Origin: Hydrurus foetidus
Taxonomy: Eukaryota
Assembly: GCA_900617105.1 (NCBI GenBank)
Contig: UYFQ01000001.1
Span: 4,836,001-4,900,000, forward strand
Reading direction: 5' to 3'
Length of the DNA: 64,000 nucleotides
In this document: positions 4,541 to 61,518 of the stretch, one piece after another
How the letters are laid out: each line of letters begins with the position of its first letter
How positions within the stretch are numbered: the stretch's first letter is position 1
The notes under the pieces: model-generated
The model's input: the letters and a program-made list of their open reading frames with translations, nothing else
Database searches by the model: none
Told to the model about the DNA's origin: nothing
Program-made: the position numbers and the translations under genes

Positions 4541-4594
4541 CATTAAGCCGATAAACCAATCAATACGGGCGCGATCAGCTCTTAAATAAATAGC
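4541..4594 (-). repeat. 54-bp dispersed element, copy 1 (intergenic)
   Basis: Reverse complement: GCTAT-TTATTTA-AGAGCTGATCGCGCCC-GTATTGATT-GGTTTAT. Confidence 0.85.
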
Positions 4595-4616
4595 AAAAAG
4601 TGACGACTTGGCAGTC

Positions 4617-4653
4617 AAAAAGAAACCCGCCCAAGCTGCCCGGGGCGGGTTTT
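4617..4653 (-). terminator. Intrinsic terminator of hppA
   Basis: Stem AAACCCGCCC/GGGCGGGTTT followed by a T-rich tail on the minus strand. Confidence 0.7.
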
Positions 4654-4670
4654 GGTTATTGGAAGGTCGG

Positions 4671-7148
4671 CTACATCAAAGCAACTTCAACCCGTCGCCC
4701 CTCATCCGCGCTGGTCGCACCGGCCTTGATGTCGTCGGGCTTTTTCAGCTCGATTTTGTCTGCTGGTACGCCCGCAACAACTAACAAGTCTTGCACGGCG
4801 AAGGCGCGCATTTTGGCTATTGCGGCATTTTTAACCGGGTCGCCGCTGGCGTCTACATAGCCACTGATCACGGCTTTTTTGCCGCCTGCAACGCCTTTGA
4901 CAATCACGGCAAGCGCTTCTTTGCCGCCGCCTGCAATTTCAGATTTGCCGGATGCAAAGTAGAACTTGACCACATCGCCTTCCACTTTGACCGATGCTGC
5001 GTCTGCCTCAGCTGCAGCAGTGGCCCCAGCCGTTGCAGGCATCGCCGCGGCTGGTGCGCTGATGGCCGCCGGAGCCGCAGCAGCAGGGGCGGGCGCTTCG
5101 CCGCCATGCACCTTCACCACCAGCGGCACAATCAGCAGCGCCACGATGTTGATGATTTTGATCAGCGGGTTAATGGCCGGGCCTGCGGTGTCTTTGTACG
5201 GGTCGCCCACTGTGTCGCCGGTGACTGCGGCTTTATGCGCCTCGCTGCCTTTGCCGCCATGGTTGCCGTCTTCAATGTACTTTTTGGCGTTGTCCCATGC
5301 GCCGCCGCCGGTGCACATCGATATGGCCAAAAAGATGCCGGTGATGATGGTGCCCATCAACAAACCGCCTAGCGCTTTGGGGCCGAGTAGCAAGCCAATG
5401 ACCACGGGCACAACCACTGGCAGCAGCGACGGGATGATCATTTCCTTAATCGCCGATGTGGTCAGCATGTCAACCGCAGCGCTGTAGTCAGGCTTGCGTT
5501 TGCCGGCCATGATGAGGCCGTCAGCAAACTGGCGGCGCACTTCCACCACGACTGAGCCTGCTGCGCGGCCCACGGCTTCCATAGCCATCGCACCGAACAA
5601 ATACGGAATCAGCCCGCCAATGAACAAACCCACAATCACCATTGGGTCGCTCAGGTCAAAGCTGATGGCTTTGCCGTAGCTCTCCAGCTTGTGCGTGTAG
5701 TCGGCAAACAGCACCAGTGATGCCAAGCCAGCCGAGCCAATCGCGTAGCCCTTGGTCACGGCTTTGGTGGTGTTGCCTACTGCGTCGAGCGGGTCGGTTA
5801 CGGCGCGCACTTCGGGCGGCATGTCGGCCATCTCGGCTATGCCGCCGGCGTTGTCGGTAATCGGGCCGTACGCGTCGAGTGCCACCACAATGCCAGCCAT
5901 ACTGAGCATGGCAGTCGCTGCAATGGCAATGCCGTACAAACCGGCGAGCTTGAACGACAGCAAAATCGCAATGCACACAAACACCACCGGCCAGGCGGTA
6001 GAGCGCATTGACACACCCAGGCCCGCAATAATATTGGTGCCGTGGCCGGTGGTGGATGCCTGCGCAATGTGCTTGACGGGCGAGTACTGCGTGCCCGTGT
6101 AAAACTCGGTCACCCAAACCAGCGCGGCTGTGAGCACCAGGCCGACAGCGCACGCGCCAAACAGCTTCATCTGGCTGCCGGTGGCGGTAATGGAGTTGTC
6201 CGGCATGATGCTCGTCGTGACGAAGTAAAACGCGACCAGTGACAGCACGCCTGCAATCGCCAGGCCTTTGTATAGCGCAGGCATCACATTCTTCATGCCG
6301 GGCGAGGCCTTGACAAAAAAGCAGCCAATGATTGAAGCCACAATCGACACCGCGCCCAGCACCAGCGGGTACAGCACGGCGTTGGTGGGCGCACTTGTCA
6401 CCAGCAAAGCGCCTAGCACCATCGTGGCAATTAACGTTACGGCGTAGGTTTCAAACAAGTCGGCCGCCATACCGGCGCAGTCGCCCACGTTGTCGCCCAC
6501 GTTGTCGGCAATCACGGCCGGGTTGCGCGGGTCGTCTTCGGGGATGCCGGCTTCAACCTTGCCAACCAGATCAGCGCCGACGTCAGCACCTTTGGTGAAA
6601 ATACCGCCGCCCAAGCGCGCAAAAATGGAGATAAGCGATGAGCCGAAAGCAAAACCAATCAATGGGTTAAGCAGGGCAGCGGTGGGAGTTTGCGCACCGA
6701 CTAAAAACCAGTAAAAACCGGCCACGCCGAGCAAGCCTAGGCCAACCACCAGCATGCCGGTAATTGCGCCGCCCCTGAAGGCAACGTCAAGCGCGGGGCC
6801 AATGCCTTTGGTGGCGGCTTGCGCGGTGCGTACGTTGGCGCGTACCGATACGTTCATACCGATGAAGCCGCAGGCGCCCGACAGCACTGCGCCAATGACA
6901 AAACCAATGGCGGTTTTGGCATCCAGAAAGATATAAATCAGTACCGTGAGCACCACGCCCACAATCGCAATCGTTTTGTACTGCCGCGCCAAGTAGGCAG
7001 CAGCGCCGGTTTGAATGGCGGCTGCAATTTCCTGCATGCGTGCGTTGCCTGCGTCTTGCGACAAAATCCAGCTGCGCGCCCATACGCCGTAAACCACGGC
7101 GATCAGCCCGCACACGAGCGCAAGAATTAGCGCTGAGTTACTTGTCAT
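4671..7148 (-). CDS. hppA: Membrane H+-translocating pyrophosphatase (K+-independent type) with C-terminal OmpA-like domain
   Basis: [26 protein letters not shown] (Lys variant), [10 protein letters not shown]; Ala/Pro linker then [10 protein letters not shown]...SGYVDASG...RRVEV. Confidence 0.93.
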
Positions 7149-7494: not shown

Positions 7495-8034
7495 ATGGCA
7501 CTAGACAAAGTAACCCCCGGCGCGAAAGCACCCGAAGAATTCAACGTCATCATTGAAATCCCGATGAACGCCGACCCGGTGAAGTACGAAGTAGACAAAG
7601 AGTCGGGCGCCATATTCGTAGACCGCTTCATGAGCACCGCCATGCACTACCCGACCAACTACGGCTATGTGCCGCAAACCTTGAGCGGTGATGGCGACCC
7701 GGTTGATGTGCTGGTGATCACGCCCGTGCCGTTGATACCCGGCGTGGTGGTGACATGCCGCGTCATTGGCATTTTGAAGATGACAGACGAAGCCGGTGAA
7801 GACGGCAAAGTGCTGGCCGTGCCCATCGACAAAAAATGCTCGCTGTACACCCATTGGAAAAAGCCAGAAGACATGAACCCGCTGCGCCTGAAAACCATTG
7901 CCCACTTTTTTGAGCACTACAAAGACCTGGAAGAAGGCAAGTGGGTAAAAATTGGCGGCTGGGAAGGCCCGGACGCTGCCAAAAAAGAAATTACCGACGG
8001 CATTGCTGCGTATGCTGCATTGCATAAAATTTAA
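7495..8034 (+). CDS. ppa: Soluble inorganic pyrophosphatase (family I)
   Basis: Motifs [28 protein letters not shown]. Confidence 0.97.
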
Positions 8035-8037
8035 GCT

Positions 8038-8642
<605 letters not shown>

Positions 8643-9170: not shown

Positions 9171-9224
9171 GCTATTTATTTAGGAGCTGCTTGCGCCTGT
9201 ATTCATTAGGCTACAGGGCTAAAA
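9171..9224 (+). repeat. 54-bp dispersed element, copy 3 (intergenic)
   Basis: GCTAT-TTATTTA-GGAGCTGCTTGCGCCT-GTATTCATT-AGGCTAC. Confidence 0.85.
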
Positions 9225-9397
9225 GTTAATTAATTTTCTCGAAAAAGAGCTTTTCGAACTGTCAGCAGCGGCCTACAGGCAGTTGGCCGTTGCGGCGACG
9301 AATCCATTTGCAGCGTCGTGTCAAACTTACATGAGTAAAAACAGTGGTTGTTTGTGGCGGTCGCCTTTGCCGCCGCTCCACTGGGCAAAATCTGGTT

Positions 9398-12574: not shown

Positions 12575-12628
12575 GCTATGTTTACAGAAGCTGCTTGCGC
12601 CCGTATCTATTGGGGAAAAGGCAGATTT
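12575..12628 (+). repeat. 54-bp dispersed element, copy 4 (intergenic)
   Basis: GCTAT-GTTTACA-GAAGCTGCTTGCGCCC-GTATCTATT-GGGGAAA. Confidence 0.85.
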
Positions 12629-12691
12629 GATTGTATTTTTTCTTGCTGGGGCGTGATTTTTCAGCATTGCCAACAGTGCGATACTTCAGCG

Positions 12692-13666
12692 GTGAAAAAA
12701 CACATCTACATCTATTCGCCGTCTAGCGCAGTGCGCGACAAACCCAGCTTTAAACGCGGCATTAAACGCCTGCAATCGCTCGGCCATGAAGTTGAAATTG
12801 ACGAAGCGGCGCTGGCCAAATACCAACGCTTTGCGGGAGACGACGAGACGCGCTTGGCGGCTGTGCACCGTGCCGCCGCCAGCGGGGCCGACGTGGCGCT
12901 GATCACGCGCGGTGGCTACGGGCTCACGCGCATCTTGCCCGCCATCAACTACAAAGCCGTTGCCAAATCAATTGAAAAGGGCACCCAATTCGTCGGCCAA
13001 AGCGACTTCACGGCGCTGCAAATGGCGTTGTTTACCAAAACTGGCGCGCAAACCTGGGCAGGCCCGGCGCTCGGCGAAGACTTTGGCACCGCGCACGCGC
13101 CAGACGACATCATGCAAGCGTGCTTTGACGATTTAATCACTGGCCAAGGGGAGGGCACGGGCTGGCAGTTGCCTTTACAGCCCGCCAAAATAGCTATAAA
13201 TTCAGGAGCTGCTCGCGCCCATAAAATAAGCGATACAGGTCAATTTACCATTAAAAATGCGCCTTTCTGGGGCGGAAACCTGGCGGTACTCGCATCGTTG
13301 ATTGGCACGCCCTACTTGCCACCGCCAGCGGCAGTTAAAGGCGGCATTTTGTTTATTGAAGATGTGGGCGAGCACCCTTATCGGGTTGAACGAATCTTGA
13401 CGCACATGCTGCATGCCGGGCTGTTGGACAGCCAAAAAGCGATTATTTTTGGCCAGTTCAGCAACTACAAATTAGTGCCGGGTTACGACAGCGGATTTAA
13501 CTTGGCTGGTGTGGCAGCGCGTCTGCAAACGCAGGTAAAAGCCAAAGTGCTGATGGGTTTGCCGTTTGGCCACGTGGGCACGAAAGTGCTTCTGCCGGTG
13601 GGTGCAAAAGTAACGTTGGCGGTAGACGGCCGGGACGCGTTTTTGCTGTGGGGGCATCAACACTGA
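12692..13666 (+). CDS. ldcA: Muramoyltetrapeptide LD-carboxypeptidase (S66)
   Basis: RGGYG, GQSDFT, GGNL, FIEDVGEHPYRVER, PFGH; GTG start inferred. Confidence 0.9.
   Translation: MKKHIYIYSPSSAVRDKPSFKRGIKRLQSLGHEVEIDEAALAKYQRFAGDDETRLAAVHRAAASGADVALITRGGYGLTRILPAINYKAVAKSIEKGTQFVGQSDFTALQMALFTKTGAQTWAGPALGEDFGTAHAPDDIMQACFDDLITGQGEGTGWQLPLQPAKIAINSGAARAHKISDTGQFTIKNAPFWGGNLAVLASLIGTPYLPPPAAVKGGILFIEDVGEHPYRVERILTHMLHAGLLDSQKAIIFGQFSNYKLVPGYDSGFNLAGVAARLQTQVKAKVLMGLPFGHVGTKVLLPVGAKVTLAVDGRDAFLLWGHQH
13193..13246 (+). repeat. 54-bp dispersed element, copy 5 (inside ldcA)
   Basis: GCTAT-AAATTCA-GGAGCTGCTCGCGCCC...; translated as AINSGAARAHKISDTGQF. Confidence 0.85.
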
Positions 13667-17826: not shown

Positions 17827-20091
17827 GTGCTTCACAGCACCACCTTGGCTAAATGTCGCTGGCTCCAGCGAGGGTTGTACGCCGTTGTCGCTTTGACCGT
17901 TGGGCTGGCCGCGGCTACGACCATTTACGTCTACCGAACGTTTCCGGCACTCAGCGGTGAACTGAAGGCAGCCGGCTTGAGCGCACCCGTAACGGTTGCC
18001 CGAGACGCAGCAGACGTGACCCACATCAAGGCGCAAACAAAGCGCGATGCCTGGTTTGCAATTGGCTATGTGCACGCACAAGAGCGCGGCTGGCAGCTTG
18101 AATTTAACCGCCGCGTGATGCACGGCGAGCTGTCTGAAGCTTTCGGTGCGGCTACGCTGGAAACCGACAAACTGCTGCGCGCGTTAGGCATCATGCAAGC
18201 AGCCGAGCGCCGGTGGAAAGGCCTGCCTGCCGAGGGGCGTGACGCCTTGCAGGCGTACAGCGATGGTATTAATTCGTTTTACGCCACCTCAGCGCAAGCG
18301 CTGCCGCCCGAGTTTCACATTCTGGGCATCAAGCCCGGTGGTGCAAGCGCAAAACAGTGGACGCCGCAAGACAGCATGGGCTGGTCGCTAATGATGGCGC
18401 TGGACTTGGGCGGCAATTGGGGCACTGAATTCGCCCGCTTGTCGGCGCTAAAAACCCTGAACACCACCCAGCTGTGGCAACTGTTCACGCCATACCCCGG
18501 CGAGGCGCCCGCATCTAAAGTTGACTTTGCCAAGCTGTATGCTGAGCTGGGCGTATACAAAGCCACTGTGCCAACCACTATCAAAACAGGAGCTGCTAGC
18601 GCCCGTATTAATTGGGCTACAGGCCTAAGTGATGCCGATTTCACGGCAAATTTGGCTCAAAACCTCACTCACAACATCACAGATTGGAGTAGCAGCCTGG
18701 GCACGGTGGACGGCAAGGGTTCCAACAACTGGGTGGTGGCAGGCAACCGCACTCTAAGTGCCAAACCGCTGCTGGCCAATGACCCGCACCTGGGGCTGTC
18801 AGCACCTGCTATTTGGTATTTTGCGCACGTTGAAGCGCCCGAAAGCAAGGCCGCAGACGGGCGCATTTTGCCGGCGGTGAATGCCATCGGCGCTACGCTG
18901 CCTGGTCTGCCATTTGTGGTGTTGGGCCGCACTGCGCAAGTTGCTTGGGGCGTTACTAACACCGGGCCAGATGTACAAGATTTGTACCTGGAGCAAATCA
19001 ACCCCGCCAACCCGCAGCAGTACCGCGTGCCCAGCGCGGACGCGGAGCTGGTGTGGGCCGACTTTAAAACCCGCACAGAAATTATCAAAGTCAAAGGCCA
19101 GCCAGACGCGACGGTAACCCTGCGCGAAAGCCGCCACGGCCCCGTGCTGAGCGACGCGCAAAAAAGCCACGCCGATTTAATCGACACCAACAAATACGTG
19201 CTGGCCCTGCGCTGGGCGGCGCTGGACGCCGACAACCAAACGGTGTTGTCTGGACTGCGCTCGAACCAGGCGCAATCGGTGGCTGAATTGCTGGCAGCGT
19301 ACGAAAGCTACCACTCGCCGATGCAGAGCTTGGTCATGGCCGACACCAGCGGGCGGACGGCATTTAAAGCGGTAGGCAAGCTGCCCTTGAGGCAGCCGGG
19401 CAACCACAGCATGGCCGCAGCCAGCAAAACCGCACTGCAAGGTTTTGACGGCGTGATGAAAGCCGAATCAGCTGCGCCACTGATTTTTGCCGCATGGGCC
19501 GACGAGCTTACACGCGGCGTTATCAGTGGCGATGTGAAAGGCAAGCTGGGCGACGACACCTTCAAGGCGCTGTATGGCAAGCGCAACTTTCGCGCAGCTA
19601 TCGAGGGCATCATGGTGAGGAATGATGCGGACTGGTGCGGTGCGGCTGGGTGTACGGGGCAATCTAGCGCCGCACTAGACAGAGCTTTAACGCGCCTGCA
19701 AAAAGATTACGGCGCAGACGTGAGTCAATGGACATGGGGCAGGGCACACAACGCCGTCTCAAGCCACAAACCGTTTGGCAACGTGCCGATATTGGCCAAG
19801 TTTTTCGACGTGCGCACCCCCACCGGCGGCGACACCTTCACCGTCAACGTAGGCCAATACTGAGCCAACGACGAAAAGCAACCTTTTGCCAACCGCCATG
19901 CTGCATCTATGCGAACCCTGTTCGACTTGGCCGACCTGGAAAAGTCGCTGTTTATTTACCAGACAGGGCAGAGCGGTTTGGTGTTTTCCAGCCGGTATCG
20001 GGATATGAGTGAGAGTTGGGCTAAGGTTGAATACCGGGCGCTGCAGATGTGGCCGGGGGTGATGGCGCATGAGCTGCGGCTTGTGCCTTGA
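17827..20091 (+). pseudogene. Penicillin acylase family (Ntn hydrolase), disrupted
   Basis: GSNNWVV and LLANDPHL present; in-frame TGA at 19861-19863 with homology continuing to 20091; apparent internal deletion near 19400. Confidence 0.8.
18577..18630 (+). repeat. 54-bp dispersed element, copy 6 (inside acylase spacer region)
   Basis: ACTAT-CAAAACA-GGAGCTGCTAGCGCCC-GTATTAATT-GGGCTAC; translated as TIKTGAASARINWATGL. Confidence 0.9.
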
Positions 20092-21065: not shown

Positions 21066-21119
21066 GCTATTAATACGGGAGCTGCTAACTCAAGTATCGA
21101 TTGGGCTAGGGGCCGTTTA
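21066..21119 (+). repeat. 54-bp dispersed element, copy 7 (intergenic)
   Basis: GCTAT-TAATACG-GGAGCTGCTAACTCAA-GTATCGATT-GGGCTAG. Confidence 0.8.
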
Positions 21120-21165
21120 GACTCGAGAAATTGCTGTTTTTAAAATCCAATCAGCTTTTTGCAAG

Positions 21166-23883: not shown

Positions 23884-23918
23884 TAAAAAAAGCGCTAAAA
23901 GTGGCCTTTTTAGGCATT

Positions 23919-23972
23919 AAATACGGCTGTAGCCCAATAAATACGGGCGCGAGCAGCTATTGAATAAATAGC
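23919..23972 (-). repeat. 54-bp dispersed element, copy 8 (intergenic, pilZ-tatD)
   Basis: Reverse complement: GCTAT-TTATTCA-ATAGCTGCTCGCGCCC-GTATTTATT-GGGCTAC. Confidence 0.9.
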
Positions 23973-26190: not shown

Positions 26191-27198
26191 TCACTTGTTT
26201 CTGATGTATTTATTGACCGCCGCGTTGTGCTCTTCCAGGTTGGCACTGAACTGGCTGGTGCCGTCGCCTTTGGCCACAAAGTACAGCGCGCTGGTAGGCT
26301 GCGGCTGCACCGCTGCCAGCAGCGCTGCCTTACCGGGCATGGCAATCGGTGTGGGCGGCAAACCGCCTCGGGTGTAGGTGTTGTAAGGCGTGTCGGCCAG
26401 CAAGTCGCGTTTGCGCAAATTGCCGTCGAATTTGTCGCCTAGGCCGTAAATAACAGTTGGGTCAGTTTGCAGGCGCATATTGATGCGCAACCGGTTGGTG
26501 AATACGCCCGCAATTTGCGCCCTGTCGCTGGGTTTGCCGGTTTCTTTTTCAACAATGCTGGCCAAAGTCAAGGCGTCAAGCGCCGACTTCAGCGGCGTGT
26601 CGGCCGCCCGCAGCGCCCAAGCGGCATCGAGCCGCTTGTCCATGGCTTTGGCAGCGCGTTTGAGCACCGAAAAATCACTGGACTCTTTGGCATAGGTGTA
26701 GGTGTCTGGGAAAAAGCGGCCTTCGGGGTGAATACCCGGTTTACCCAGCTTTTTCATGATCATTTCAAGGCTTAGCCCAACAGAATCGGGCGCGAGCAGC
26801 TCTGCTTTTTGTAGCGCTGCGCGCACTTGGGTAAACGTCCAGCCTTCCACCAGCGTTACGCTTTTCAGGGTTTGGTCGCCACGCACCAACATGCTAAGCA
26901 GGCTGCGCGGCGTGGTGCCGGGCGTGATCTCGTAACTGCCCGCTTTGATCAGCCGCGCCTGGCCAGACAAGCGAAACCACAGTTGCAGCAGTGGCACGCT
27001 AGATTGCGCCCCGCTAGACACCACGTCTTCGGCGATTTGCGTGGCCCGTGTGCCGGGTTCTACTTCAAGGTCAACGACGCTTGCGCCTTCTTTGAGCGTT
27101 AATGCCATAGGTGTGTAAAGCCACCACCCCGCGGCCCCTGCCACAACGCTGCTTGCCAGCAGCAAAAAAATCAAAAATTTAGAAAAAGCCGAACGCAC
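26191..27198 (-). CDS. mltG: Endolytic transglycosylase MltG
   Basis: EGRFFPDTY, LASIVEKET, LQTDPTVIYG, PYNTY. Confidence 0.95.
   Translation of the reverse strand: MRSAFSKFLIFLLLASSVVAGAAGWWLYTPMALTLKEGASVVDLEVEPGTRATQIAEDVVSSGAQSSVPLLQLWFRLSGQARLIKAGSYEITPGTTPRSLLSMLVRGDQTLKSVTLVEGWTFTQVRAALQKAELLAPDSVGLSLEMIMKKLGKPGIHPEGRFFPDTYTYAKESSDFSVLKRAAKAMDKRLDAAWALRAADTPLKSALDALTLASIVEKETGKPSDRAQIAGVFTNRLRINMRLQTDPTVIYGLGDKFDGNLRKRDLLADTPYNTYTRGGLPPTPIAMPGKAALLAAVQPQPTSALYFVAKGDGTSQFSANLEEHNAAVNKYIRNK
26762..26815 (-). repeat. 54-bp dispersed element, copy 9 (inside mltG)
   Basis: Reverse complement: GCTAC-AAAAAGC-AGAGCTGCTCGCGCCC-GATTCTGTT-GGGCTAA; translated as LQKAELLAPDSVGLSLEM. Confidence 0.8.
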
Positions 27199-27318: not shown

Positions 27319-28383
27319 ATGACCACACCTCCCCAAGCTACTGATTTACCACCTGCGGGTCACCTGTCGCAAACCCTTGAGAATTCACGCCTGTCGGGTG
27401 TATTGCGATTAAGCCATCTGGGCATCATTCGAGCAATTGGCGAGGAGGCAGGCAAATTCTTGCAAGGCCAGCTGACTCAAGACATCACCGGCCTGGGCTT
27501 AAACCAGGCGCGGCTGGCCGCGTTTTGCAACGCCAAGGGGCGCATGCAGGCGAGTTTTGTGGTGTTTAAGCGCAAAAACGACCACGGGGTTGACGATATT
27601 TTGATGGTGTGCAGCCATGATTTGCTGGCGCAAACCCTCAACCGCTTGAGCATGTTTGTGATGCGGGCCAAGGTCAAGCTCACCGATGCCACGGCGGATT
27701 TCTTGCTTTATGGCCTGTGTGGTGACGCGGCTGAAGCATTAGACGAAGCAGTGGACGAAGTAGATGCTACTGAATCAGGAGCTGCTCGCGCCCGTATTCA
27801 TTGGTCAAAGCATGACATTGATGCTGTAAATGTGATTCAACTCTACCCGGGCGCTGGCGTTGTGCGCAGCTTGTGGTGCGCGCCTGGCCAAACACCCGCG
27901 CCCGCTGGCGCGTTGCTTCCGTTGAATGACTGGCAGTATCTGGAAGTCCAGTCGGGCATTGCCACGATCACGCTGCCGATTTTTGAAGCTTTTGTGCCGC
28001 AAATGCTCAACTATGAATCAGTGGGCGGCGTTAACTTCAAAAAAGGCTGCTATCCGGGCCAGGAAGTGGTGGCGCGCAGCCAGTTCAGGGGCACGCTCAA
28101 ACGCCGGGCTTATCTTGCGAACGTACTGGTTGCAGCGGATGAAGAGCCGTCTCCCTTTATTGGGCAGGAAGTGTTTCACGCCAGTGATGTCGAACAGCCT
28201 TGTGGGCTGGTCGCCGCATACGCTGCGAACCCGGCGGGCGGCTTTGCCTTGCTGGTGTCTATGCAAACCGCTGCAGCGGCGATTGATGCAGCGGCAGGTG
28301 GCTGCCAGCTGCGCTTGGGCAGCAGCACGGGCCCTGCGGTGCAATTGCACAGCTTGCCCTACCCGTTGCTTGAAGATATTTAG
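27319..28383 (+). CDS. ygfZ: Folate-binding protein YgfZ
   Basis: KFLQGQLT; KGCYPGQE signature. Confidence 0.93.
   Translation: MTTPPQATDLPPAGHLSQTLENSRLSGVLRLSHLGIIRAIGEEAGKFLQGQLTQDITGLGLNQARLAAFCNAKGRMQASFVVFKRKNDHGVDDILMVCSHDLLAQTLNRLSMFVMRAKVKLTDATADFLLYGLCGDAAEALDEAVDEVDATESGAARARIHWSKHDIDAVNVIQLYPGAGVVRSLWCAPGQTPAPAGALLPLNDWQYLEVQSGIATITLPIFEAFVPQMLNYESVGGVNFKKGCYPGQEVVARSQFRGTLKRRAYLANVLVAADEEPSPFIGQEVFHASDVEQPCGLVAAYAANPAGGFALLVSMQTAAAAIDAAAGGCQLRLGSSTGPAVQLHSLPYPLLEDI
27766..27819 (+). repeat. 54-bp dispersed element, copy 10 (inside ygfZ)
   Basis: GCTAC-TGAATCA-GGAGCTGCTCGCGCCC-GTATTCATT-GG; translated as ATESGAARARIHW. Confidence 0.9.
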
Positions 28384-36712: not shown

Positions 36713-36722
36713 TGTTTTGCTT

Positions 36723-38722: not shown

Positions 38723-38776
38723 ACTATAAATTTAATAGCTGTTCGCGCCCGTATCTATTGCGCTACAGCACGATTT
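38723..38776 (+). repeat. 54-bp dispersed element, copy 11 (intergenic)
   Basis: ACTAT-AAATTTA-ATAGCTGTTCGCGCCC-GTATCTATT-GCGCTAC. Confidence 0.88.
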
Positions 38777-38813
38777 AATACTTAAAAACGCTTAAAAAGA
38801 CTAAATTCGACGC

Positions 38814-40343: not shown

Positions 40344-42205
40344 TAAAAAGCCTCCTCGGGCAAGGTGGCGCACAGCAGGTTGCGGCTTTCAACCACCGCC
40401 AGCCAGGCCGTTATTTTTGGCAGTTCGTAAGCGTAAAAATAGGCTGCAGCCCCCTGAATACCGGCGCGAGCAGCTATTGAATGCGTAGCAGTTGAATTCT
40501 GTGAGGCAAGAGCCACGTCAAGCCAGATCCAGGCCAGCACGGTGTGGCCAAAGGCCTGCATGTAGGGCACGGCATTGGCCAGTGCTTCTTGCGGGTTGCC
40601 CGTGGCCCAGGCGGCTTTCGTGGCTTTATCGATTTGCAGCAATGCAGACGTGAGGGCTTTTGCGTGATCCTTTAACTCGGCATGACCATAAGCCTTTTGA
40701 ATTGTGGCTTGCAAGCGGTCGGCCAGCAATTTCAAACCTTGTCCGCCTTCCATCAGCACCTTGCGGCCAAGTAAATCAGTGGCCTGTATGCCGTGCGTGC
40801 CTTCGTGAATCATGTTCAAGCGGTTGTCGCGCCAATACTGCTCAACCGGAAAGTCTCGTGTGTAGCCGTAGCCGCCCAGCACCTGTATCGCCAACGAATT
40901 CGCTTCCAGGCACCATTCGCTGGGCCAACTTTTTGCGATGGGCGTCAGCACTTCCAGCAACATGCGGGCGTCGTCAGCGGCTTGTGGCTCTGCGGTGTGC
41001 TGTTCGTCGACCAGGCGGGCGCAGTACAGCTCTAGCGCCAGCGCGCCTTCGCAATACGACTTTTGCGCCAGCAGCATGCGGCGGACGTCGGCGTGTTCGA
41101 TGATGCGGACTTGCGGCGCAGAAGCGTCTTTACCACCCTGCCCCACCGGCCTGCCCTGAGGGCGATTTTTGGCATAGTCCAAGCTGGCGTGATAGCCCGC
41201 CATGCCCAACATGGTGGCAGCCAAGCCAACACCAATGCGCGCCTCGTTCATCATGTGGAACATGCAGCGCAGGCCTTCGTGTGGCTTGCCGACCAGATAG
41301 CCCACGGCACCTGTGCCGTCTCCAAATGCTCCACCAGCTTCGCCATCAACCGGGTATTGGCCTTCCCCGAAATTCAGCAGCGTATTGGTCGTGCCGCGCC
41401 AGCCGAGCTTGTGATTTAAGCCGGCCAGAGCAACGTCGTTGCGCACACCTGTTAACTCACCTTTTACGTTCACCAGCTTTTTCGGCACGATGAAAAGCGA
41501 AATGCCCCGCGTGCCCGCAATCAATTTGCCATCAGGCCCCGGAATTTTGGCCAGCACCAAGTGAATGATGTTTTCCGTCAGCTCATGCTCACCTGACGAA
41601 ATCCACATCTTGTTGCCCTTGAGGCGGTAGCGGGCACCCAGCGGCTCGGCTTCGAAGTCATCGCCATCAGGCACAGCGCGCGTGGTCACGTCGCTGAGTG
41701 ACGAGCCCGCCTGCGGCTCGCTCAAACACATCGTTCCCGAAAAGCGGCCTGAAAACTCGTTTTTGGCAAACACGTCTTTTTGCAAGTCAGTGCCATGCAC
41801 CATCAGCAAATTTGCGTTACCCGTGGTCAGCATGCCAGAGCCAATACTGACCGATGCCATTGCAAAAAAAGCATTGGCAGCGGCTTCCACCGTGTAAGGC
41901 AACTGCATGCCGCCCATGTCGAAGTCTTGCGCGGCACTCAGCATGCCAGACTCGGCATAGGCCTTGTTAGCGTCATGCGTAGCCTGCGGCAAGATGACTT
42001 TTTCGCCATCAAAGTGCGGCTCTTGCGTGTCTACCAGGCGATTGAACGGCGCATACTTTTCACGCGCAATGCGCTCGCAGGTGTCAAACACCGCGTCAAA
42101 GGTTTCGCGCGAGTGGTCAGCAAAGCGTGGGCGCTGGTTTAGCGACTCGGCTTGCAGCCAGTCGTAAAGCAAAAAATCAAGTGTGGAGCGCAAGTTCATG
42201 GGCAA
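40343..42205 (-). CDS. Acyl-CoA dehydrogenase
   Basis: TMCLSEPQAGS, GNKMWIS, MMNEAR, GGYGY, IHEGT. Confidence 0.93.
   Translation of the reverse strand: MPMNLRSTLDFLLYDWLQAESLNQRPRFADHSRETFDAVFDTCERIAREKYAPFNRLVDTQEPHFDGEKVILPQATHDANKAYAESGMLSAAQDFDMGGMQLPYTVEAAANAFFAMASVSIGSGMLTTGNANLLMVHGTDLQKDVFAKNEFSGRFSGTMCLSEPQAGSSLSDVTTRAVPDGDDFEAEPLGARYRLKGNKMWISSGEHELTENIIHLVLAKIPGPDGKLIAGTRGISLFIVPKKLVNVKGELTGVRNDVALAGLNHKLGWRGTTNTLLNFGEGQYPVDGEAGGAFGDGTGAVGYLVGKPHEGLRCMFHMMNEARIGVGLAATMLGMAGYHASLDYAKNRPQGRPVGQGGKDASAPQVRIIEHADVRRMLLAQKSYCEGALALELYCARLVDEQHTAEPQAADDARMLLEVLTPIAKSWPSEWCLEANSLAIQVLGGYGYTRDFPVEQYWRDNRLNMIHEGTHGIQATDLLGRKVLMEGGQGLKLLADRLQATIQKAYGHAELKDHAKALTSALLQIDKATKAAWATGNPQEALANAVPYMQAFGHTVLAWIWLDVALASQNSTATHSIAARAGIQGAAAYFYAYELPKITAWLAVVESRNLLCATLPEEAF
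40436..40489 (-). repeat. 54-bp dispersed element, copy 12 (inside acyl-CoA dehydrogenase)
   Basis: Reverse complement: GCTAC-GCATTCA-ATAGCTGCTCGCGCCG-GTATTCAGG-GGGCTGC; translated as ATHSIAARAGIQGAAAYF. Confidence 0.8.
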
Positions 42206-45685: not shown

Positions 45686-45765
45686 GCATTGTAGGCGTGT
45701 GATTTAGCTGCTTGGCTGTGGCCGCAGCCTGATTTGTCCCACCTGCGACAAACCCTTGTAATGCG

Positions 45766-46461: not shown

Positions 46462-46476
46462 GAAAGGCTCCGACGG

Positions 46477-46546
46477 GTCGCCCCTTGGAGGCCTTGCGCC
46501 CCCCCGGGGGGCAGTAAAGTACGCGAAGCGAAGAGCTCGGGGGTCA
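46477..46546 (-). repeat. REP-like element, family 2
   Basis: Reverse complement TGACCCCC...TCGCTTCGCGTACT...CCCCCCGGGGGG; matches 54749-54817. Confidence 0.75.
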
Positions 46547-48615: not shown

Positions 48616-48618
48616 GCG

Positions 48619-49608: not shown

Positions 49609-49639
49609 GGAGGTTTCAAGAAATGACAACAAACAAAAA

Positions 49640-49678
49640 ATAAACGCCTTGGCAGCCAGGCAGCTGTCAGGCGTTTAT
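49640..49678. terminator. Intercistronic hairpin after the binding-protein gene
   Basis: ATAAACGCCT...AGGCGTTTAT inverted repeat, T-rich on the minus side. Confidence 0.6.
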
Positions 49679-49702
49679 AAAGTCAAACCCAACCCGGTTG
49701 AA

Positions 49703-50938: not shown

Positions 50939-51071
50939 TTCGTTGTCTCCGTTGATTAAAAGCACACCTGTAAAGCGTACAAGTTTTTTCTTGCGCAACC
51001 GCTAGGGAATCCCCTCGGCAAATATCGCTGAAGTGACACCGCCGCAAAACGGCGAGCACTTCATCGACGGC

Positions 51072-52727
51072 TTACTTAACCGGCGACGCGTCGGGCAGTT
51101 TGTAGTCTTTGAGTGTCTCTCGCAATTTTGTTTTTAGCATCTTGCCCGTGGCACCAATTGGTATGGCGTCTACAAACACCACGTCGTCAGGGATTTGCCA
51201 CTTGGCCGTTTTGCCCTCGTAAAACGCAATCAGCTCGTCCCGGCTTACCTCAGCGCCGGGCTTTTTAACCACCGCCACAATCGGCCGCTCGTCCCACTTG
51301 GGGTGCGCCACGCCTATGCACGCTGCCATGGCCACTGCTGGGTGCGCCACGGCAATGTTTTCAATGTCAATCGAGCTGATCCATTCACCGCCAGACTTGA
51401 TGACGTCTTTGCTGCGGTCCGTGATTTGCATGTAGCCATCCGCATCAATTCTGGCCACGTCGCCCGTGGGGAACCAGTCGCGGCCATTGGCATCTTTGAT
51501 TTGCGGGTTGCCGCCTTCGCTTTTAAAGTACTGATCAACTATCCACGGGCCACGCACCAGCACATCGCCAGCGGCCACGCCGTCCCAAGGCAACTCTGCG
51601 CCAGCCGGGTCAACAATTTTCATGTCGACGCCAAAAATGCCGTGGCCTTGCTTGGCCTGCACTGCCCAACGCTCGGCGGGAGCCAAGTTCAAGTGCTTGG
51701 TCATCAATGTGCCTGCAGTACCCAACGGGCTCATCTCGGTCATGCCCCAGCCTTGAATGACCCGCACACCGTAGTCTTCATCAAACTTTTGAATCATGGC
51801 CAGCGGACATGCCGCACCGCCGATCACAGTTCGGTTCATGCACGCGAATTGGAGCTTATTGGCATCCATGTAGGTCAGCAAACCCTGCCAGATGGTAGGC
51901 ACACCCGCCGAAAAGGTGACTCGCTCGTTGTTCAATAACTCGTGCAGCGATTTTCCGTCCATGGCTGCGCCGGGGAAGACCAATTTAGCGCCCACCATGC
52001 ACGCAATGTACGGAATACCCCAGGCATTGACGTGAAACATAGGCACCACCGGCAAAATGGTGTCCTGGTTAGAACAATTGAGCACATCGGGCATGGCCGC
52101 GGCGTAGGTGTGCAGCAACGTAGAGCGGTGGCTGTACAGCACGCCCTTGGGGTTGCCCGTAGTGCCGCTGGTGTAGCACAGGGTAGACGCAGTGTTTTCG
52201 TCAAACTGCGGCCACGCATAACTGCCGCTCTGCGCGCCCATCCAAGCTTCGTAGCTTTGCAGGCCCGGAATGCCGGTGTCGAGCGGCAGTTTGTCAGCAT
52301 CGCACAGCGCGATGTAGTGCTTGATGGTGGTGCAGCGTGCGTGCACAGCCTGTATGAGCGGCAAAAAAGTCATGTCAAAACACAGCACCTGGTCCTCGGC
52401 GTGGTTAGCTATCCAGGCGATCTGGTCAGGGTGCAGACGCGGGTTGATGGTGTGCAGCACCCGGCCAGAGCCGCTGACACCGTAGTACAGCTCGAAGTGG
52501 CGGTAGCCGTTCCACGCCAGCGTAGCGACGCGATCGCCAAACGCCAGGTTTAACCCGTCTAGCGCATTGGCGACTTGCCGCGCCCGCTTGGCCGAATCTT
52601 TGTACGTGTATCGGTGTATGTCGCCTTCGACCCGGCGCGACACCACCTCAGCGCCGCCGTGGTTGCGCTCGGCAAATTCAATCAAGTTCGAAATCAGCAG
52701 CGGCTGATTTTGCATTAAACCTAGCAT
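51072..52727 (-). CDS. Fatty-acid-CoA ligase (DmdB/AlkK-like)
   Basis: [28 protein letters not shown]. Confidence 0.92.
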
Positions 52728-52844
52728 TTGAAAATCTCCAGTCAACATTAAAAACTAACCGCATCATGCCGTAACCGGTCAAGCCAAAGCCTACGGGAAT
52801 CCCCTGAATCTATCACCTGCTGGCGCTTGGGTGACAATTTGCCA

Positions 52845-54293
52845 ATGACTGCTGAATTGAACTGGACCAACCGCTTTGCCCGCCTGGGTGAAAATTTTTA
52901 CACCCGCTTGCAGCCGCAAGCGCTACCCGAGCCGTACTGGATAAGCCGCAACCTGGCCGTTGCTCGCGAACTGGGCATTGACGAAAGCTGGCTTGAGTCG
53001 CCAGACGTGCTGCAAGCCTTGTCAGGCAGCGGCGTTTTGCCGGGCAGCCAGCCACTGGCCAGCGTTTACAGCGGCCACCAGTTTGGCCAGTGGGCGGGAC
53101 AGTTGGGTGATGGCCGGGCGATATTGCTGGGGGAATTGCAAACGCCCGCCGGCGGAATTGAATTGCAGTTGAAGGGTGCTGGCAAAACGCCCTACTCTCG
53201 CATGGGCGATGGCAGGGCCGTGCTGCGGTCATCGATTCGCGAATACTTGTGCTGTGAAGCCATGCACGGCTTGGGCATTCCCACCACGCGGGCGCTGGCC
53301 TTGACGGGTTCAGACGCCAAGGTGCTGCGCGAAGAGATTGAAACTGCCGCCGTCGTTACCCGCACTGCGCCCAGCTTCATCAGGTTTGGGCATTTTGAGC
53401 ACTTCAGCTACAACGAGATGCACGGCGAACTGAAGGCGCTCGCCGACTTTGTGATCGACAGCTTTTACCCCGCCTGCAGGGATGCAACCAACCCTTACGC
53501 CGCTTTGCTTGAAGCGGTCAGTGAACGCACGGCGCACCTGATGGCAGCCTGGCAAGCCGTCGGCTTTTGCCACGGCGTGATGAACACCGACAACATGAGC
53601 ATTTTGGGGCTGACGATTGACTACGGCCCGTTTCAATTTTTGGATGCGTTTGACCCCACCCACGTTTGCAACCATTCAGACAGCCATGGCCGCTACGCCT
53701 ACAACAAGCAGCCCAATATGGCCTACTGGAACCTGTTTTGCCTGGGTCAAGCGCTGCTGCCGCTGATTGGCGAGCAAGACGCCGCCTTGGTCGCGCTAGA
53801 GTCCTACAAAACCATTTTCCCGGCAGCGCTTGAAGCAAAAATGCGTACCAAGCTGGGGCTGCTTGATGAGCAACCCGGTGACAAAGAGCTGATTGAAAGT
53901 ACCTTCAAGCTACTGGCTGCCAACAAGGTTGACTACACGATCTTCTGGCGCGCGCTGGCCAGCTTCACGCCGCAAAGTGGGCATGAACTGCTCCGCGACA
54001 TGTTCTTTGACCGCCAGTCGTTCAATGCCTGGGCGCTACAATATTCAGTGCGGCTAGCGCCCGTATCTATTGGGCAAAGAGCAGATTTAATGCTTAAAAA
54101 CAACCCAAAATACGTGCTGCGCAACCATTTGGGCGAACAAGCCATTCGCGCCGCGAAACTAAAAGACTATTCCAGCATCCATACCTTGCTGTCTGTGCTG
54201 CAGGCCCCATTTGATGAGCATGCTGACCACAACGCGCTGGCCGCATTGCCGCCCGATTGGGCCAGCGGCATTGAAATCAGCTGCAGCTCTTGA
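52845..54293 (+). CDS. selO: Protein adenylyltransferase SelO (YdiU)
   Basis: [22 protein letters not shown]-terminal SCSS. Confidence 0.95.
54035..54088 (+). repeat. 54-bp dispersed element, copy 13 (inside selO)
   Basis: GCTAC-AATATTC-AGTGCGGCTAGCGCCC-GTATCTATT-GGGCAAA; translated as [18 protein letters not shown]. Confidence 0.8.
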
Positions 54294-54325: not shown

Positions 54326-54751
54326 ATGACCCCTACCGTGCCCCCCAAAGTTCAAAAAACCGACGCCGAATGGAAAGCCCTGCTCAAAGAAAAAGGCGCT
54401 GAATCTGTCGCTTTCGACGTCACCCGCCACGCCGGCACCGAGCGCGCCTTCACTGGCAAGTACGAAACCGTGTGGGCAGACGGCGCCTACCACTGCATGT
54501 GCTGCGGTGAAAAGTTGTTTGAATCAAGCACCAAATTCGACTCGGGCTGCGGCTGGCCCAGCTTTTCGCAAGCCACCAACGACAGCGCTATCACCGAACA
54601 CACCGACAACAAGTACGGCTGGAGCCGCACCGAAACGGTGTGCACCAACTGCGGCGCGCATTTGGGCCATGTTTTTAACGACGGGCCCGCACCTATTGGG
54701 CTGCGCTACTGCATGAATTCAGCGTCGTTAGATTTCAAACCAAGTACGTGA
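54326..54751 (+). CDS. msrB: Peptide-methionine (R)-S-oxide reductase
   Basis: [32 protein letters not shown]. Confidence 0.97.
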
Positions 54752-54817
54752 CCCCCACGCTTGTCGCTTCGCGTACTGCACTACCCCCCGAGGGGGCCGT
54801 CACTTGCTCGGGGCGGC
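54749..54817 (+). repeat. REP-like element, family 2
   Basis: TGACCCCCACGCTTGTCGCTTCGCGTACTGCACTACCCCCCGAGGGGG...GGGGCGGC. Confidence 0.75.
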
Positions 54818-54858
54818 TAGTGGCTGCGCGTTTCCAGCTAGAACGATAATCCCCACCC

Positions 54859-56593: not shown

Positions 56594-56639
56594 GTTTCTT
56601 ATGGCTTTGTAAGCGGGTTTTTAGCGTATTTTGACTGTT

Positions 56640-56693
56640 AAATAGGCTTGTAGCCAAATAAATACGGGCGCTAGCAGCTCTTTATTTAATAGC
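56640..56693 (-). repeat. 54-bp dispersed element, copy 14 (intergenic)
   Basis: Reverse complement: GCTAT-TAAATAA-AGAGCTGCTAGCGCCC-GTATTTATT-TGGCTAC. Confidence 0.9.
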
Positions 56694-57648: not shown

Positions 57649-58383
57649 TTACTTCAGCGCATCCAGCGCCATCAGCGCGCCAATCATCACCGGCTGGTGC
57701 AGCATGTACCAAGTCAAGCTCCAGCGGCCCAGCCATGTAAGCGGCGCCGCAGCACTCGGCAGCGGGCTGGCTAGCCACTGCGGCCGACGCGCCAGCATCG
57801 CTTGCCCTGCGGCCATGCCCCACCACATCACGCCCAGCCACGGCAGCAGCGGCACGTAGTCTTCGGTAACTGGCTTCTTGCCGATCAAACCGAGCCAATT
57901 AAAAGCTTTTTCATTCAAAAAAGCGGCTTCAGGCCAATCAATATGGGCGCGAGCAGCTACTAAAGGCATAGCAATTGCCAGCGCGCCAAGCAACCATAAC
58001 CACCGCCCCCAGCCGCTTGTGCACCGCACAATGATCAACATCACGGCAAGGCCATGCAGCACGCCAAAATAAATAAAACTCTTGGGATAGGTGGCGTACG
58101 AGCCCGCTGTCACCAGTAGCGCGCAGCCTGCCACTTGCGCCCAGCGCCGCCAAAACCGCTGGCGGGTTTGCCCCTGCTGCGCTGCTATCGCCTGACTCAA
58201 GCCCGCACAAAATACAAACAAACTGACGATGACGGCGCGCTGCGTTGTCCACAGCGGGTTGATGTAAAAGTTTTGTTTGATGTAACCGAATTGATTCAAG
58301 TCAAAACAAAAGTGAAACACCGTCATCCACACGATGGCCACGCCGCGCAGAGCGTCAATACGGTCAAAGCGGGTGGCTGGCAT
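57649..58383 (-). CDS. DUF1624 / heparan-alpha-glucosaminide N-acetyltransferase-like membrane protein
   Basis: IDALRGVAI..M..FH, IYFGVLH, DYVPLLPW, YMLHQP. Confidence 0.85.
   Translation of the reverse strand: MPATRFDRIDALRGVAIVWMTVFHFCFDLNQFGYIKQNFYINPLWTTQRAVIVSLFVFCAGLSQAIAAQQGQTRQRFWRRWAQVAGCALLVTAGSYATYPKSFIYFGVLHGLAVMLIIVRCTSGWGRWLWLLGALAIAMPLVAARAHIDWPEAAFLNEKAFNWLGLIGKKPVTEDYVPLLPWLGVMWWGMAAGQAMLARRPQWLASPLPSAAAPLTWLGRWSLTWYMLHQPVMIGALMALDALK
57919..57972 (-). repeat. 54-bp dispersed element, copy 15 (inside DUF1624 gene)
   Basis: Reverse complement: GCTAT-GCCTTTA-GTAGCTGCTCGCGCCC-ATATTGATT-GGCCTGA; translated as AMPLVAARAHIDWPEAAF. Confidence 0.8.
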
Positions 58384-59439: not shown

Positions 59440-59493
59440 GCTATTAATTAATGAGCTGCTCACGCCCGTACTTATTGGGTTACAGCCCTATTT
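59440..59493 (+). repeat. 54-bp dispersed element, copy 16 (intergenic)
   Basis: GCTAT-TAATTAA-TGAGCTGCTCACGCCC-GTACTTATT-GGGTTAC. Confidence 0.88.
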
Positions 59494-59759
59494 TATGCCT
59501 GAAAACGGCACTTTTAAGGCAAAAATAACCATCTTCACCTGAGCTGTAAATTTGCATTTGCGCGTATACAAGTGTAGCCAACAGGTCGGCCAAGGCAGGT
59601 TCGTGGTCATTGCAATCAAGCGCCGGGCTGCGGTAAAACTGCTGCGCTTGAGGGGAGGCAATTTGAACTGAGGCCCTTCGTTTTATGTCGCTGAAGCGAC
59701 CAGATTAAGCATGACTGCTCTTTAGACTGAAAACATAAATCAATAACAGGAGACTCTTC

Positions 59760-61409
59760 ATGAATCATTTTTTTAAACTTGGCTTGGCCAGCGCCGTCAT
59801 TGGAATGGCGGCCTGCGGCACCGTGATGCAAAACGCCTCGACCACTCGGCCAGCCAGCTGGTCAGCGCCTGAGGTGTTGGTGGCTCCGTCGTCGTTTAGC
59901 GGCGTGCACGGGCTGGCAGTAGACATGCAAGGGCGTTTGCTTGCCGGCAGTGTGCTGGGCAACAACCTGTGGGAAGTTGACCGCACCACTGGCGCAGCAA
60001 AAGTGTTGATTCCCGCGCCCGAAGGCCAAGCCGACGACATTGCCATTGGCCCCAAAGGCGAGATGGCCTGGACGTCCTACATACAGGGCGTGCTGCGCTA
60101 CCGCGCCAACGACACGGCACCCATTCGCGTGCTGGCCAAAGACCTGCCCGGCATCAATTCGCTGGCGTTTGACCAGCGCAGCGGCAAGCTTTACGCGTCG
60201 CAGGTTTTTTTAGGCGATGCGATGTGGGAAATCGATGTCGCTGATAAACCAGATAGGGCTGCACCCCGCTTGATTGCCAAAGACATGGGCGGCTTCAATG
60301 GCTTTGAAGTCGGCCCCGACGGCATGATTTACGGCCCGCTGTGGTTCAAAGGCCAGGTCGTCATGATGAACCCAGCCAACGGCGCCATTACCGTGATCAA
60401 CAGCGACTTCAAAATTCCGGCGGCGGCCAACCTCGACGGCAAAGGCAACCTTTGGGTGGTAGATACTCGTACTGGCGAGCTGAGCAAGGTCGAGCTGGCC
60501 AACGGCCGCAAAACGGTGGTCAAGCAGCTCAAAACTGCACTAGATAACCTGGCCATTGCGCCCAACGGTTTGATTTATGTGTCGAACATGGCCGACAACT
60601 CGATTGAGTCGTTCAACCCCGCCACGGGCGAGTTGAAAACACTGACCAGCGGCAAGCTGGCCGTGCCCGGCGGCATGAAGCTGGACGGCGACACACTGTG
60701 GGTGGCCGACGTGTTTGGCTTCAGGCAAGTCAATATCAAAACCGGCGACGTGAAAGACGTGCTGCGCATGCAAGCGTCTGATATGGAGTACCCGTTTTCT
60801 GTGGGCGTATCAAGCAAGCAATTTGCCTTGACGTCATGGTTTACCGGCAGCGTGCAGGTCATTGACCGCGCCACGCTAAAAACCAGCACCATGATCCACG
60901 GCCTGAAAGCGCCAATGGACGCGCTGTTTTTAGAAGACGGCAGCCTGGTTTTCAATGAAATAGCGACCGGATCAATCACCCGCGCCAGCGGCAAAGACTT
61001 TATTGACCGCAAAGTGTTGGCGCAAGGCTTGGGCGGCCCGGTGCAAATGACGCTAGGCAGAGACGGCGCCATTTACGTGACTGAAGCCGCAGGCAACCTG
61101 ACCCGAATCAACTTGGCCGACGGCGGCAAAACAGTAGTCGCCGACAAACTGGCGCTGCCAGAAGGCGTGGCGCAAACGCCGTGGGGCACCTTCATAGTGG
61201 CCGAAACCGCCGCTCGCCGCCTGGTAGAAATTAACCCGGCAGACGGCACCCGCCGCACGGTGGCAGAGAACCTGCCGATAGGCCTGGAAGCCGGCCCTGG
61301 CCTGCCACCGCCCTACGTGCCTACGGGCGTGGCTGTCGGGGCTGATGGCACGATTTACATGAGTGCGGACCGGAACAATGCGATTTACAAGATTCGGCCT
61401 GGGCGGTGA
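59760..61409 (+). CDS. Beta-propeller lipoprotein (SMP-30/NHL-like repeats)
   Basis: Lipobox-like MAAC; repeated GLAVD/DIAIGPKG/GVAVGADGTIY blades. Confidence 0.75.
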   Translation: MNHFFKLGLASAVIGMAACGTVMQNASTTRPASWSAPEVLVAPSSFSGVHGLAVDMQGRLLAGSVLGNNLWEVDRTTGAAKVLIPAPEGQADDIAIGPKGEMAWTSYIQGVLRYRANDTAPIRVLAKDLPGINSLAFDQRSGKLYASQVFLGDAMWEIDVADKPDRAAPRLIAKDMGGFNGFEVGPDGMIYGPLWFKGQVVMMNPANGAITVINSDFKIPAAANLDGKGNLWVVDTRTGELSKVELANGRKTVVKQLKTALDNLAIAPNGLIYVSNMADNSIESFNPATGELKTLTSGKLAVPGGMKLDGDTLWVADVFGFRQVNIKTGDVKDVLRMQASDMEYPFSVGVSSKQFALTSWFTGSVQVIDRATLKTSTMIHGLKAPMDALFLEDGSLVFNEIATGSITRASGKDFIDRKVLAQGLGGPVQMTLGRDGAIYVTEAAGNLTRINLADGGKTVVADKLALPEGVAQTPWGTFIVAETAARRLVEINPADGTRRTVAENLPIGLEAGPGLPPPYVPTGVAVGADGTIYMSADRNNAIYKIRPGR

Positions 61410-61464
61410 TGGGGTTGGCTGGTAGATTGGGTTAAAAGCAGGCTTGGCCTGCTTTTTCTTATCT

Positions 61465-61518
61465 GAAACGGCCTCTAGGCCAATAAATATGAGCGCGAGC
61501 AGCCATTTAAGTAATAGC
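61465..61518 (-). repeat. 54-bp dispersed element, copy 17 (intergenic)
   Basis: Reverse complement: GCTAT-TACTTAA-ATGGCTGCTCGCGCTC-ATATTTATT-GGCCTAG. Confidence 0.85.

Follow-up and report, generated by a model that had tools for sequence, protein, structure and literature searches.

A stretch of 64,000 nucleotides of contig UYFQ01000001.1 (assembly GCA_900617105.1, filed under Hydrurus foetidus; positions 4,836,001 to 4,900,000), referred to below as the window, carries 17 dispersed copies of a DNA element of about 66-68 bp that is a real, family-restricted and maintained DNA signal, most likely one working like an uptake sequence. The motif is restricted to one bacterial family, the Comamonadaceae, and the window DNA itself probably belongs to this family, judging from the range of the motif and from the nearest genomes.

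The first-pass annotation of the window had described 17 copies of a 54-bp element that aligned without gaps. All 17 were recovered at the positions and on the strands it gave, with a gap-free alignment and leave-one-out matrix scores of 35-78 bits, compared with a best score of 7.6 bits over 50 locally shuffled windows, and a matrix scan of the window revealed no 18th copy scoring above 8 bits. The length had been underestimated, as 346 copies pooled from five genomes gave sharp limits at about -2 and +66. In the common frame, the sequence RCTAY-N7-RTAGC occupies positions 1-17 and GC is found at 23-24 and 40-41, while the pooled copies have A/T tracts at 7-11, 51-54 and 60-64. The whole element is a pseudo-dyad about position 32, the left half being the stronger, and includes a T-N11-A box at positions 3-15, a form that resembles the boxes of LysR proteins. 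The two halves were in register at 51 of the 54 sites in genome G343 at which both were scored (genomes and loci are cited by working numbers, G and L), and the scores of the modules were weakly positively correlated or uncorrelated. The information content was 51-65 bits, whereas 13-14 bits would suffice to locate the element.

Strict matches were counted with a dialect-neutral pattern, the reversed pattern serving as the control. G001, the nearest relative used for the window (91-97% identity over long matches), had 313 strict matches versus 0 for the control, and G130 had 275. Between 40 and 597 strict matches were present in 48 of the 301 genomes sampled from the family, while no genome in other families of the same order had more than 3 (245 genomes, 57 families). 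The genus sample (n = 71) consisted of 44 genomes with at least 40 matches, 20 with at most 8, including the unpublished G321, and 7 between these limits. Motif-rich hosts had 60-160 strict matches per Mb, and a density of one site per 3-8 kb was also recorded. The named carriers were mostly Comamonadaceae (Polaromonas, Acidovorax, Rhodoferax, Comamonas, Giesbergeria, Simplicispira, Xylophilus and others), together with a few bins labelled otherwise.

The copies in the window, with their matrix scores, were:

Copy 1: 4529..4594, minus strand; intergenic, downstream of the H+-pyrophosphatase gene; 50.8 bits.
Copy 2: 8026..8091, minus strand; between the pyrophosphatase and deaminase genes; 60.1 bits.
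Copy 3: 9171..9236, plus strand; intergenic, after the MAPEG gene, with a copy at the same place in G001; 55.9 bits.
Copy 4: 12575..12640, plus strand; upstream of the conserved part of the LD-carboxypeptidase, where homologues other than that of G001 align only from residue 34-57; 53.9 bits.
Copy 5: 13193..13258, plus strand; coding, in a variable-length linker of the LD-carboxypeptidase (ldcA), where G239 has its own dialect; 35.1 bits.
Copy 6: 18577..18642, plus strand; coding, in a variable-length linker of a penicillin-amidase-family gene; 60.2 bits.
Copy 7: 21066..21131, plus strand; between convergent genes; 40.1 bits.
Copy 8: 23907..23972, minus strand; between pilZ and tatD, the top score, with a copy at the same place in G001; 78.2 bits.
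Copy 9: 26750..26815, minus strand; coding, in mltG/yceG, gap-free against G001, G130, G269, G239 and G020; 38.8 bits.
Copy 10: 27766..27831, plus strand; coding, in a variable-length ygfZ linker, where G239 has its own dialect; 46.2 bits.
Copy 11: 38723..38788, plus strand; intergenic, kept in G351, G316, G311, G343 and G130, whereas the motif-poor G331 and G269 lack it and have a shorter spacer; 60.9 bits.
Copy 12: 40424..40489, minus strand; coding, near the end of an acyl-CoA dehydrogenase gene, present in G351, G316 and G130, absent from G311, G343, G331 and G269; 45.8 bits.
Copy 13: 54035..54100, plus strand; coding, in selO; 46.2 bits.
Copy 14: 56628..56693, minus strand; between convergent genes, kept in G001 and G351, absent from G343, G130 and G269; 71.0 bits.
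Copy 15: 57907..57972, minus strand; coding, in a HGSNAT-like acyltransferase gene, gap-free against G001 and G239 (own dialect); 52.3 bits.
Copy 16: 59440..59505, plus strand; between divergent genes; 65.7 bits.
Copy 17: 61453..61518, minus strand; downstream of a NHL/lyase-repeat gene; 50.2 bits.

Dispersal over both intergenic and coding DNA, as initially noted, was borne out, with 7 of the 17 copies coding and all of these read in the sense direction. About one third of the copies are coding, and outside the window coding copies lay on both strands (sense/antisense: G343, 9/9; G130, 12/17; G020, 8/6), mainly in sense frame 0 and antisense frame 1. The copies in mltG, selO and the HGSNAT-like gene aligned with their orthologues without gaps. 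In selO, the motif covered the same codons in all 20 motif-rich rows of the alignment, 19 of them gap-free and one (G316) with 12 extra motif-like bases, and G239 and G020 each had a spelling of their own over these codons. Copies held out of the matrices were assigned to their own genome in 15/17, 66/74, 147/163 and 39/58 cases in the four genomes to which the leave-one-out procedure was applied. The G239 dialect formed a near-uniform block, even within selO.

Among 14 motif-poor rows, the selO motif was lost in 13, G311 being the one that kept it. The motif-poor rows retained remnant residues of the motif-shaped peptide while their codons drifted toward GC-rich forms. In the selO tree, motif-poor genomes were placed at several points among the motif-rich ones, with G269 and G341 beside G130, G331 beside G343 (weakly supported), G318 and G304 beside G327, G346 and G332, G311 beside the window clade, and G333 grouped with G308. 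The motif was thus apparently lost in several independent lineages, the number of which is approximate because the tree represents one gene with open forks. Several of the lineages that lost it have near-complete genomes of normal size. The nested arrangement of the losses suggests a process that acts genome-wide and can stop.

The element is not a REP (repetitive extragenic palindromic) sequence, a MITE (miniature inverted-repeat transposable element) or an RNA. Copies within a genome were on average 56-66% identical and at most 78-85%, and near-identical copies were absent from the four genomes compared. The reported lack of target-site duplications was upheld, none being found beyond chance at three assumed ends (p 0.27-0.86), so that terminal inverted repeats, target duplication and near-identical young copies, the usual marks of a MITE, were all wanting. 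Among the 15 contig joints listed of 97, none skipped a copy cleanly. Orthologous empty sites were not shorter by one element at selO or mltG, while the spacer at 38723 was about 45-60 bp shorter in G331 and G269. No Rfam family matched. A compensated GCCT/AGGC pair had been noted in copy 3. Covariation does not back it, as Watson-Crick pairing in either dyad did not exceed that of column shuffles in any of four genomes, and a hairpin of RNA or single-stranded DNA was rejected for want of pairing covariation; none of the carriers listed was an RNA. The inner N7 spacer, which varies but stays A/T-rich between conserved arms, had lower complementarity than its shuffled controls in three of four genomes, a result that same-strand A- or T-tracts and readout of DNA shape would give. 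A maintained, fixed-geometry site recognised on double-stranded DNA, as opposed to a classical REP or MITE, is supported by the lack of covariation and target duplications and by the gap-free orthologous sites.

Several genes were considered as mobiliser or writer of the element and rejected. There was no motif copy at the RAYT-like (REP-associated tyrosine transposase-like) loci L002, L003 and L005, and the gene was present in 31/31 genomes. The RAYT-like gene of G001 (L002 1402-2282) is flanked by its own 30-bp inverted repeats, not by the motif. Within the genus, each of the 29 genomes tested had a single RAYT-like gene, which lay 6-7 kb from pilQ in the five compared and looks like a vertically kept, domesticated gene. 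Of 19 motif-rich genomes, 8 lacked a reverse transcriptase, and 5 of 12 motif-poor genomes had one; small GIY-YIG nucleases did not track the motif. In addition, the search for a gene with a phylogenetic profile matching the motif, a check proposed at the outset, produced no such gene among the comEC, ComP_DUS pilin, reverse transcriptase, RAYT-like and GIY-YIG candidates.

A role in chromosome organisation of the matS, KOPS or parS kind had been suggested and is unsupported so far, because the copies lie all round the chromosome without polarity in G020, where they occupied 19 of 20 evenly spaced blocks (69 plus, 69 minus), showed no link to GC skew and gave no sign of macrodomain restriction or replichore polarity. 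G343 had 31 plus and 27 minus copies over 400 kb, with near-random spacing (coefficient of variation 0.9). A post hoc split of G130 gave 8 plus and 20 minus versus 28 plus and 16 minus, a weak asymmetry that was repeated neither in G020 nor in the 400 kb of G343. Extended DNA wrapping is likewise unsupported so far, as the pooled copies of five genomes had no periodic signal beyond 66 bp. Strong gyrase sites have periodic flanks of about 130 bp on both sides, and a gyrase-type wrap was rejected here since the signal ends at -2 and +66 without periodic flanks.

Convergent gaps were enriched in copies (G130: 20 in 53 convergent versus 4 in 60 divergent gaps; G343: 9 in 34 versus 2 in 47), and in co-directional gaps there was no preferred orientation relative to transcription. 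Two copy-free gaps in the window, 27820-38722 (11 kb) and 40490-54034 (13.6 kb), contain ordinary metabolic genes. In G130, the 3 of 28 blocks with less than 59% GC had 0 copies. A strict copy was present in 55 viral contigs, and 26 of these phage records, chosen because they hold one, contained 14 further matches in 1.1 Mb, well under the density in the hosts. The phage copies lie in or beside ordinary genes encoding terminase, repressor, recombination, portal and primase functions. In at least six phage contigs (L418, L433, L436, L449, L453, L458), the motif was seen in the 3' portion of the gene for the large subunit of a lambda-like terminase, and these copies are possibly one ancestral site.

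A BLAST search with a window copy gave no plasmid match and one weak phage match; this search was insensitive, because a copy of another dialect did find plasmid copies. With the G020 copy as query, the plasmid matches fell within DUF1010 (PF06231) genes of integron cassettes, which we take to be those labelled orfD/gcuD and gcuF. In plasmid R751, the matching cassette lies between dfrB3 and qacE, and in the cassettes of R751 and pPH1JI the centre is this motif on the opposite strand, scoring 64.9 bits in R751 with the G020 matrix. The motif is abundant in DUF1010 cassettes, and a chromosomal array in G162 (L512-L513, 1577-1591 kb) has 13 motif-bearing, attC-bounded cassettes of about 320 bp each. 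At least five DUF1010 cassettes stand back to back in this array, one having a 48-base deletion that removes the motif. The first-pass annotation had stated that the cassette array carries no copies; an attC scan found no array in the window, and integron arrays of relatives do carry the motif. Over 13 related cassettes, the ratio of nonsynonymous to synonymous polymorphism (pN/pS) was 0.62 and the variable columns were spread evenly over the three codon positions (33, 38, 39), so the DUF1010 protein seems to be under weak constraint. The reading frame was kept across deletions of 42 and 48 bases. A TT/AA periodicity of 10-11 bp was found at p<0.05 in three of the six cassettes tested. In the part of the recent literature covered here, the cassette is annotated as encoding an uncharacterised protein (10.1101/2024.02.09.579496).

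Four observations that the first-pass annotation did not make together point more to an uptake-type signal, 1) the dialects, 2) the writing of the motif over codons, 3) the genome-wide losses and 4) the DUF1010 cassette. The reading placed first, which we hold tentatively and at a little under even chance, is that the element is a 'self' signal of the DNA-uptake type spread by biased transformation. In transformation by way of the type IV pilus, a protein would recognise the element on double-stranded DNA; the better a fragment matched, the more often it would be recombined into the genome, so that molecular drive would build up the motif. That a protein does the reading, that the reading occurs at uptake and that drive, rather than fitness at each site, is responsible are all steps that we infer.

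Published transformation experiments bear on this reading. As given in the results and discussion of PMC4212676, foreign DNA in an excess of up to 1500:1 lowers the pilus-dependent transformation of Verminephrobacter eiseniae by only about 10-fold, Acidovorax temperans was transformed solely by DNA of its own species, and these sections name no uptake sequence. The genome of A. temperans DSM 7270 had 307 strict matches versus 1 for the control. The uptake-like pattern, this selectivity and the A. temperans matches are the reasons that an uptake signal was ranked first. The machinery is widespread, comEC being present in 42 of 43 genomes and dprA, comEA and pilQ in the five compared. In many motif-rich genomes, the matched span of comEC extended further, reaching about 960 nt compared with mostly about 850, and motif copies occurred in or at comEC in G332 and G343. 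A minor-pilin cluster between glyA-nrdR and ribD (L534-L538) was 25-60% identical between congeners, compared with 70-99% for its neighbours, and in G343 has a motif copy on each side. In ComEA-like proteins (L349-L353), the length of a Lys/Ala-rich tail varies greatly. G130 and G343 have a second dprA-like gene, which was rejected as a factor, as it lies in unrelated accessory operons.

A number of findings weigh against an uptake signal. The element is 5-6 times longer than the core of a DNA uptake sequence (DUS), carries 51-65 bits and is pseudo-dyadic. Near-miss sites are few, with 19 at 5-25 bits versus 121 above 25 bits and 2 expected by chance, a poor fit with stepwise growth. Copy number had no GC trend in G020 (rho -0.03). 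The copies in ldcA, the amidase and ygfZ are in linkers that differ in length from those of relatives, relatives that lack the motif at the acyl-CoA dehydrogenase site differ there by up to 9 bases, and the spacer at 38723 is shortened, as described, where the copy is missing; indels therefore do occur, which argues against pure substitution. Motif-poor relatives keep comEC and dprA, comEA, pilQ and the pilin loci likewise occur in both motif-rich and motif-poor genomes, and the competence genes do not track the motif. No receptor or other cognate protein was found. A ComP_DUS domain (PF16732), expected of a receptor pilin, was found in 42 of 43 genomes whatever the motif count, with variation unlinked to dialect, and at the pilin loci of five genomes neither an orphan pilin nor a gene restricted to the two motif-rich genomes was seen. 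Finally, A. defluvii DSM 12644 has 257 matches and gave no transformants in the experiments cited from PMC4212676, and the species limit of A. temperans may stem from a recombination barrier.

In an alternative to which the failure of competence genes to track the motif also lends weight, the motif would be bound in the cytoplasm by a chromosomal protein or complex, for example a LysR-like tetramer or some other nucleoid protein, with ordinary selection at each site and decay once the protein is lost. The pseudo-dyad about position 32 with its T-N11-A box, the fixed register of 51/54 sites, the enrichment in convergent gaps and the copies on phages and in cassette arrays would all suit such a site. 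However, hundreds of sites would have to shift dialect along with the protein, the information is about four times that needed for location, the modules do not compensate for one another, G020 shows neither macrodomain restriction nor polarity, and several lineages without sites have near-complete genomes of normal size; this explanation is considered less likely than an uptake signal, and the likeliest of the alternatives to it.

Selfish overwriting, in which copies are written and made alike by templated patch conversion, either with one another or with a master template as the source and with no need of a reader protein, would account for the deep gap between background and full sites. It would also accommodate the near-uniform G239 block that extends into selO, and small length changes such as the 12 extra bases in G316 selO and the shorter spacer in G331 and G269. 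Against this, the copies share only 56-66% identity on average and 78-85% at most, and the N7 spacer varies between conserved arms while staying A/T-rich. The reverse transcriptase, RAYT-like gene and GIY-YIG nucleases all fail to track the motif, and the joints listed held no clean skip, which makes patch conversion improbable. Least probable of all is a Chi-like or pac-like self mark that machinery for repair, defence or packaging would recognise within the cell, so that marked DNA survives or is transferred more often, since the density of one site per 3-8 kb, the 55 viral contigs with several copies at the 3' end of terminase genes and the G130 strand split are offset by the lack of polarity in G020 and in 400 kb of G343, by phage copies that also lie beside repressor, recombination, portal and primase genes, and by a length far beyond that of Chi.

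The uptake-type signal can be compared with the DUS and uptake signal sequences (USS) of Neisseriaceae and Pasteurellaceae. Uptake sequences are conserved words in permissive parts of the core genome and scarce in acquired DNA, according to the portion of PMC2397512 covered, and the USS has a GC core with T-tracts in the corresponding portion of PMC3458573. The element likewise is scattered over both strands in hundreds of copies, occupies permissive sites in coding DNA with preferred reading frames, and has dialects, a GC core with phased A/T tracts, and hosts with type IV pili and competence genes. As for recently acquired DNA, the picture is mixed, with no copies in the three low-GC blocks of G130 and a low density in phage records, but no GC trend in G020 and abundance in DUF1010 cassettes. 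In contrast, DUS and USS have non-palindromic cores of 9-12 bp, while the element is a 66-68 bp pseudo-dyad, occurs once per 3-8 kb, was repeatedly lost within one genus and has no receptor pilin that tracks it. Because it fails on size and receptor, it is likened to these systems and not placed among them, and the uptake role is that of a candidate.

REP/REPIN-RAYT systems (REPINs being REP doublets) and MITEs, as usually defined, are also short, abundant, partly palindromic and enriched in convergent gaps, whereas this element lacks covariation, target duplications, near-identical copies and a flanked transposase, is about one third coding and has gap-free orthologous sites. Rickettsia palindromic elements are repeats read in frame inside genes and give recurring peptides; at selO, mltG and the HGSNAT-like gene, the element replaces codons and adds no peptide. 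A term search of the REP/REPIN-RAYT paper PMC3733652 for six Comamonadaceae-related names found none. The betaproteobacterial repeat element (BRE), as described in the part of PMC3110155 covered, is dispersed in Comamonadaceae and sometimes lies within genes; it is a different, GC-rich sequence, and identity with it was rejected. A GC-rich repeat in the window (54746-54825, minus strand), at which many contigs pile up, resembles the published BRE by eye and is a separate repeat family. The window also has IS3-type transposase genes at both ends (848-2043 and 62060-62867, the right one split over two frames) and a glutathione S-transferase seemingly split into N- and C-terminal open reading frames (36723-37658).

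Fragments of the motif appear to be in print already, without a function. In the portion of Tong et al. 2017 covered (PMC5217627), the pairs ATAGCT(N)22CAAAAG from Polaromonas naphthalenivorans (125 copies) and GCTTAT(N)5AAGCG from Acidovorax ebreus (114 copies) are listed with a bias to convergent gaps. Placed by eye, they fit positions 13-46 and 25-40 of the frame, respectively. That portion treats them as separate pentamer pairs with no function and does not mention a single element, dialects, codon overwriting or losses. No paper on the whole element was found in a literature coverage that excluded most subscription papers, and a full-text search with six 13-letter motif words returned unrelated papers only.

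In the papers found by our searches, uptake signals are described for two families only. If the uptake reading is true, the element would be a third, far larger and modular uptake signal, and would name the signal behind selective transformation in Verminephrobacter and Acidovorax. It is a rather more doubtful step to the full picture, in which the Comamonadaceae would be the third bacterial family with sequence-specific uptake. Their modular 66-bp signal would combine a left box common to the family with a right part that serves as a species barcode, and its receptor would differ from both ComP and ComN. Uptake of this kind would have been switched off several times in one genus, and the DUF1010 cassette of chromosomal and clinical class 1 integrons would carry the signal instead of being a protein gene. 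Even as the site of a chromosomal binding protein, a 66-bp sequence that rewrites the codons of conserved enzymes across a family would call for an explanation. The uptake signal would also give a DNA-level meaning to an integron cassette that is common and annotated only as a protein of unknown function, and sister species that have or lack the motif form a natural experiment in which molecular drive can be studied and the reader protein traced.

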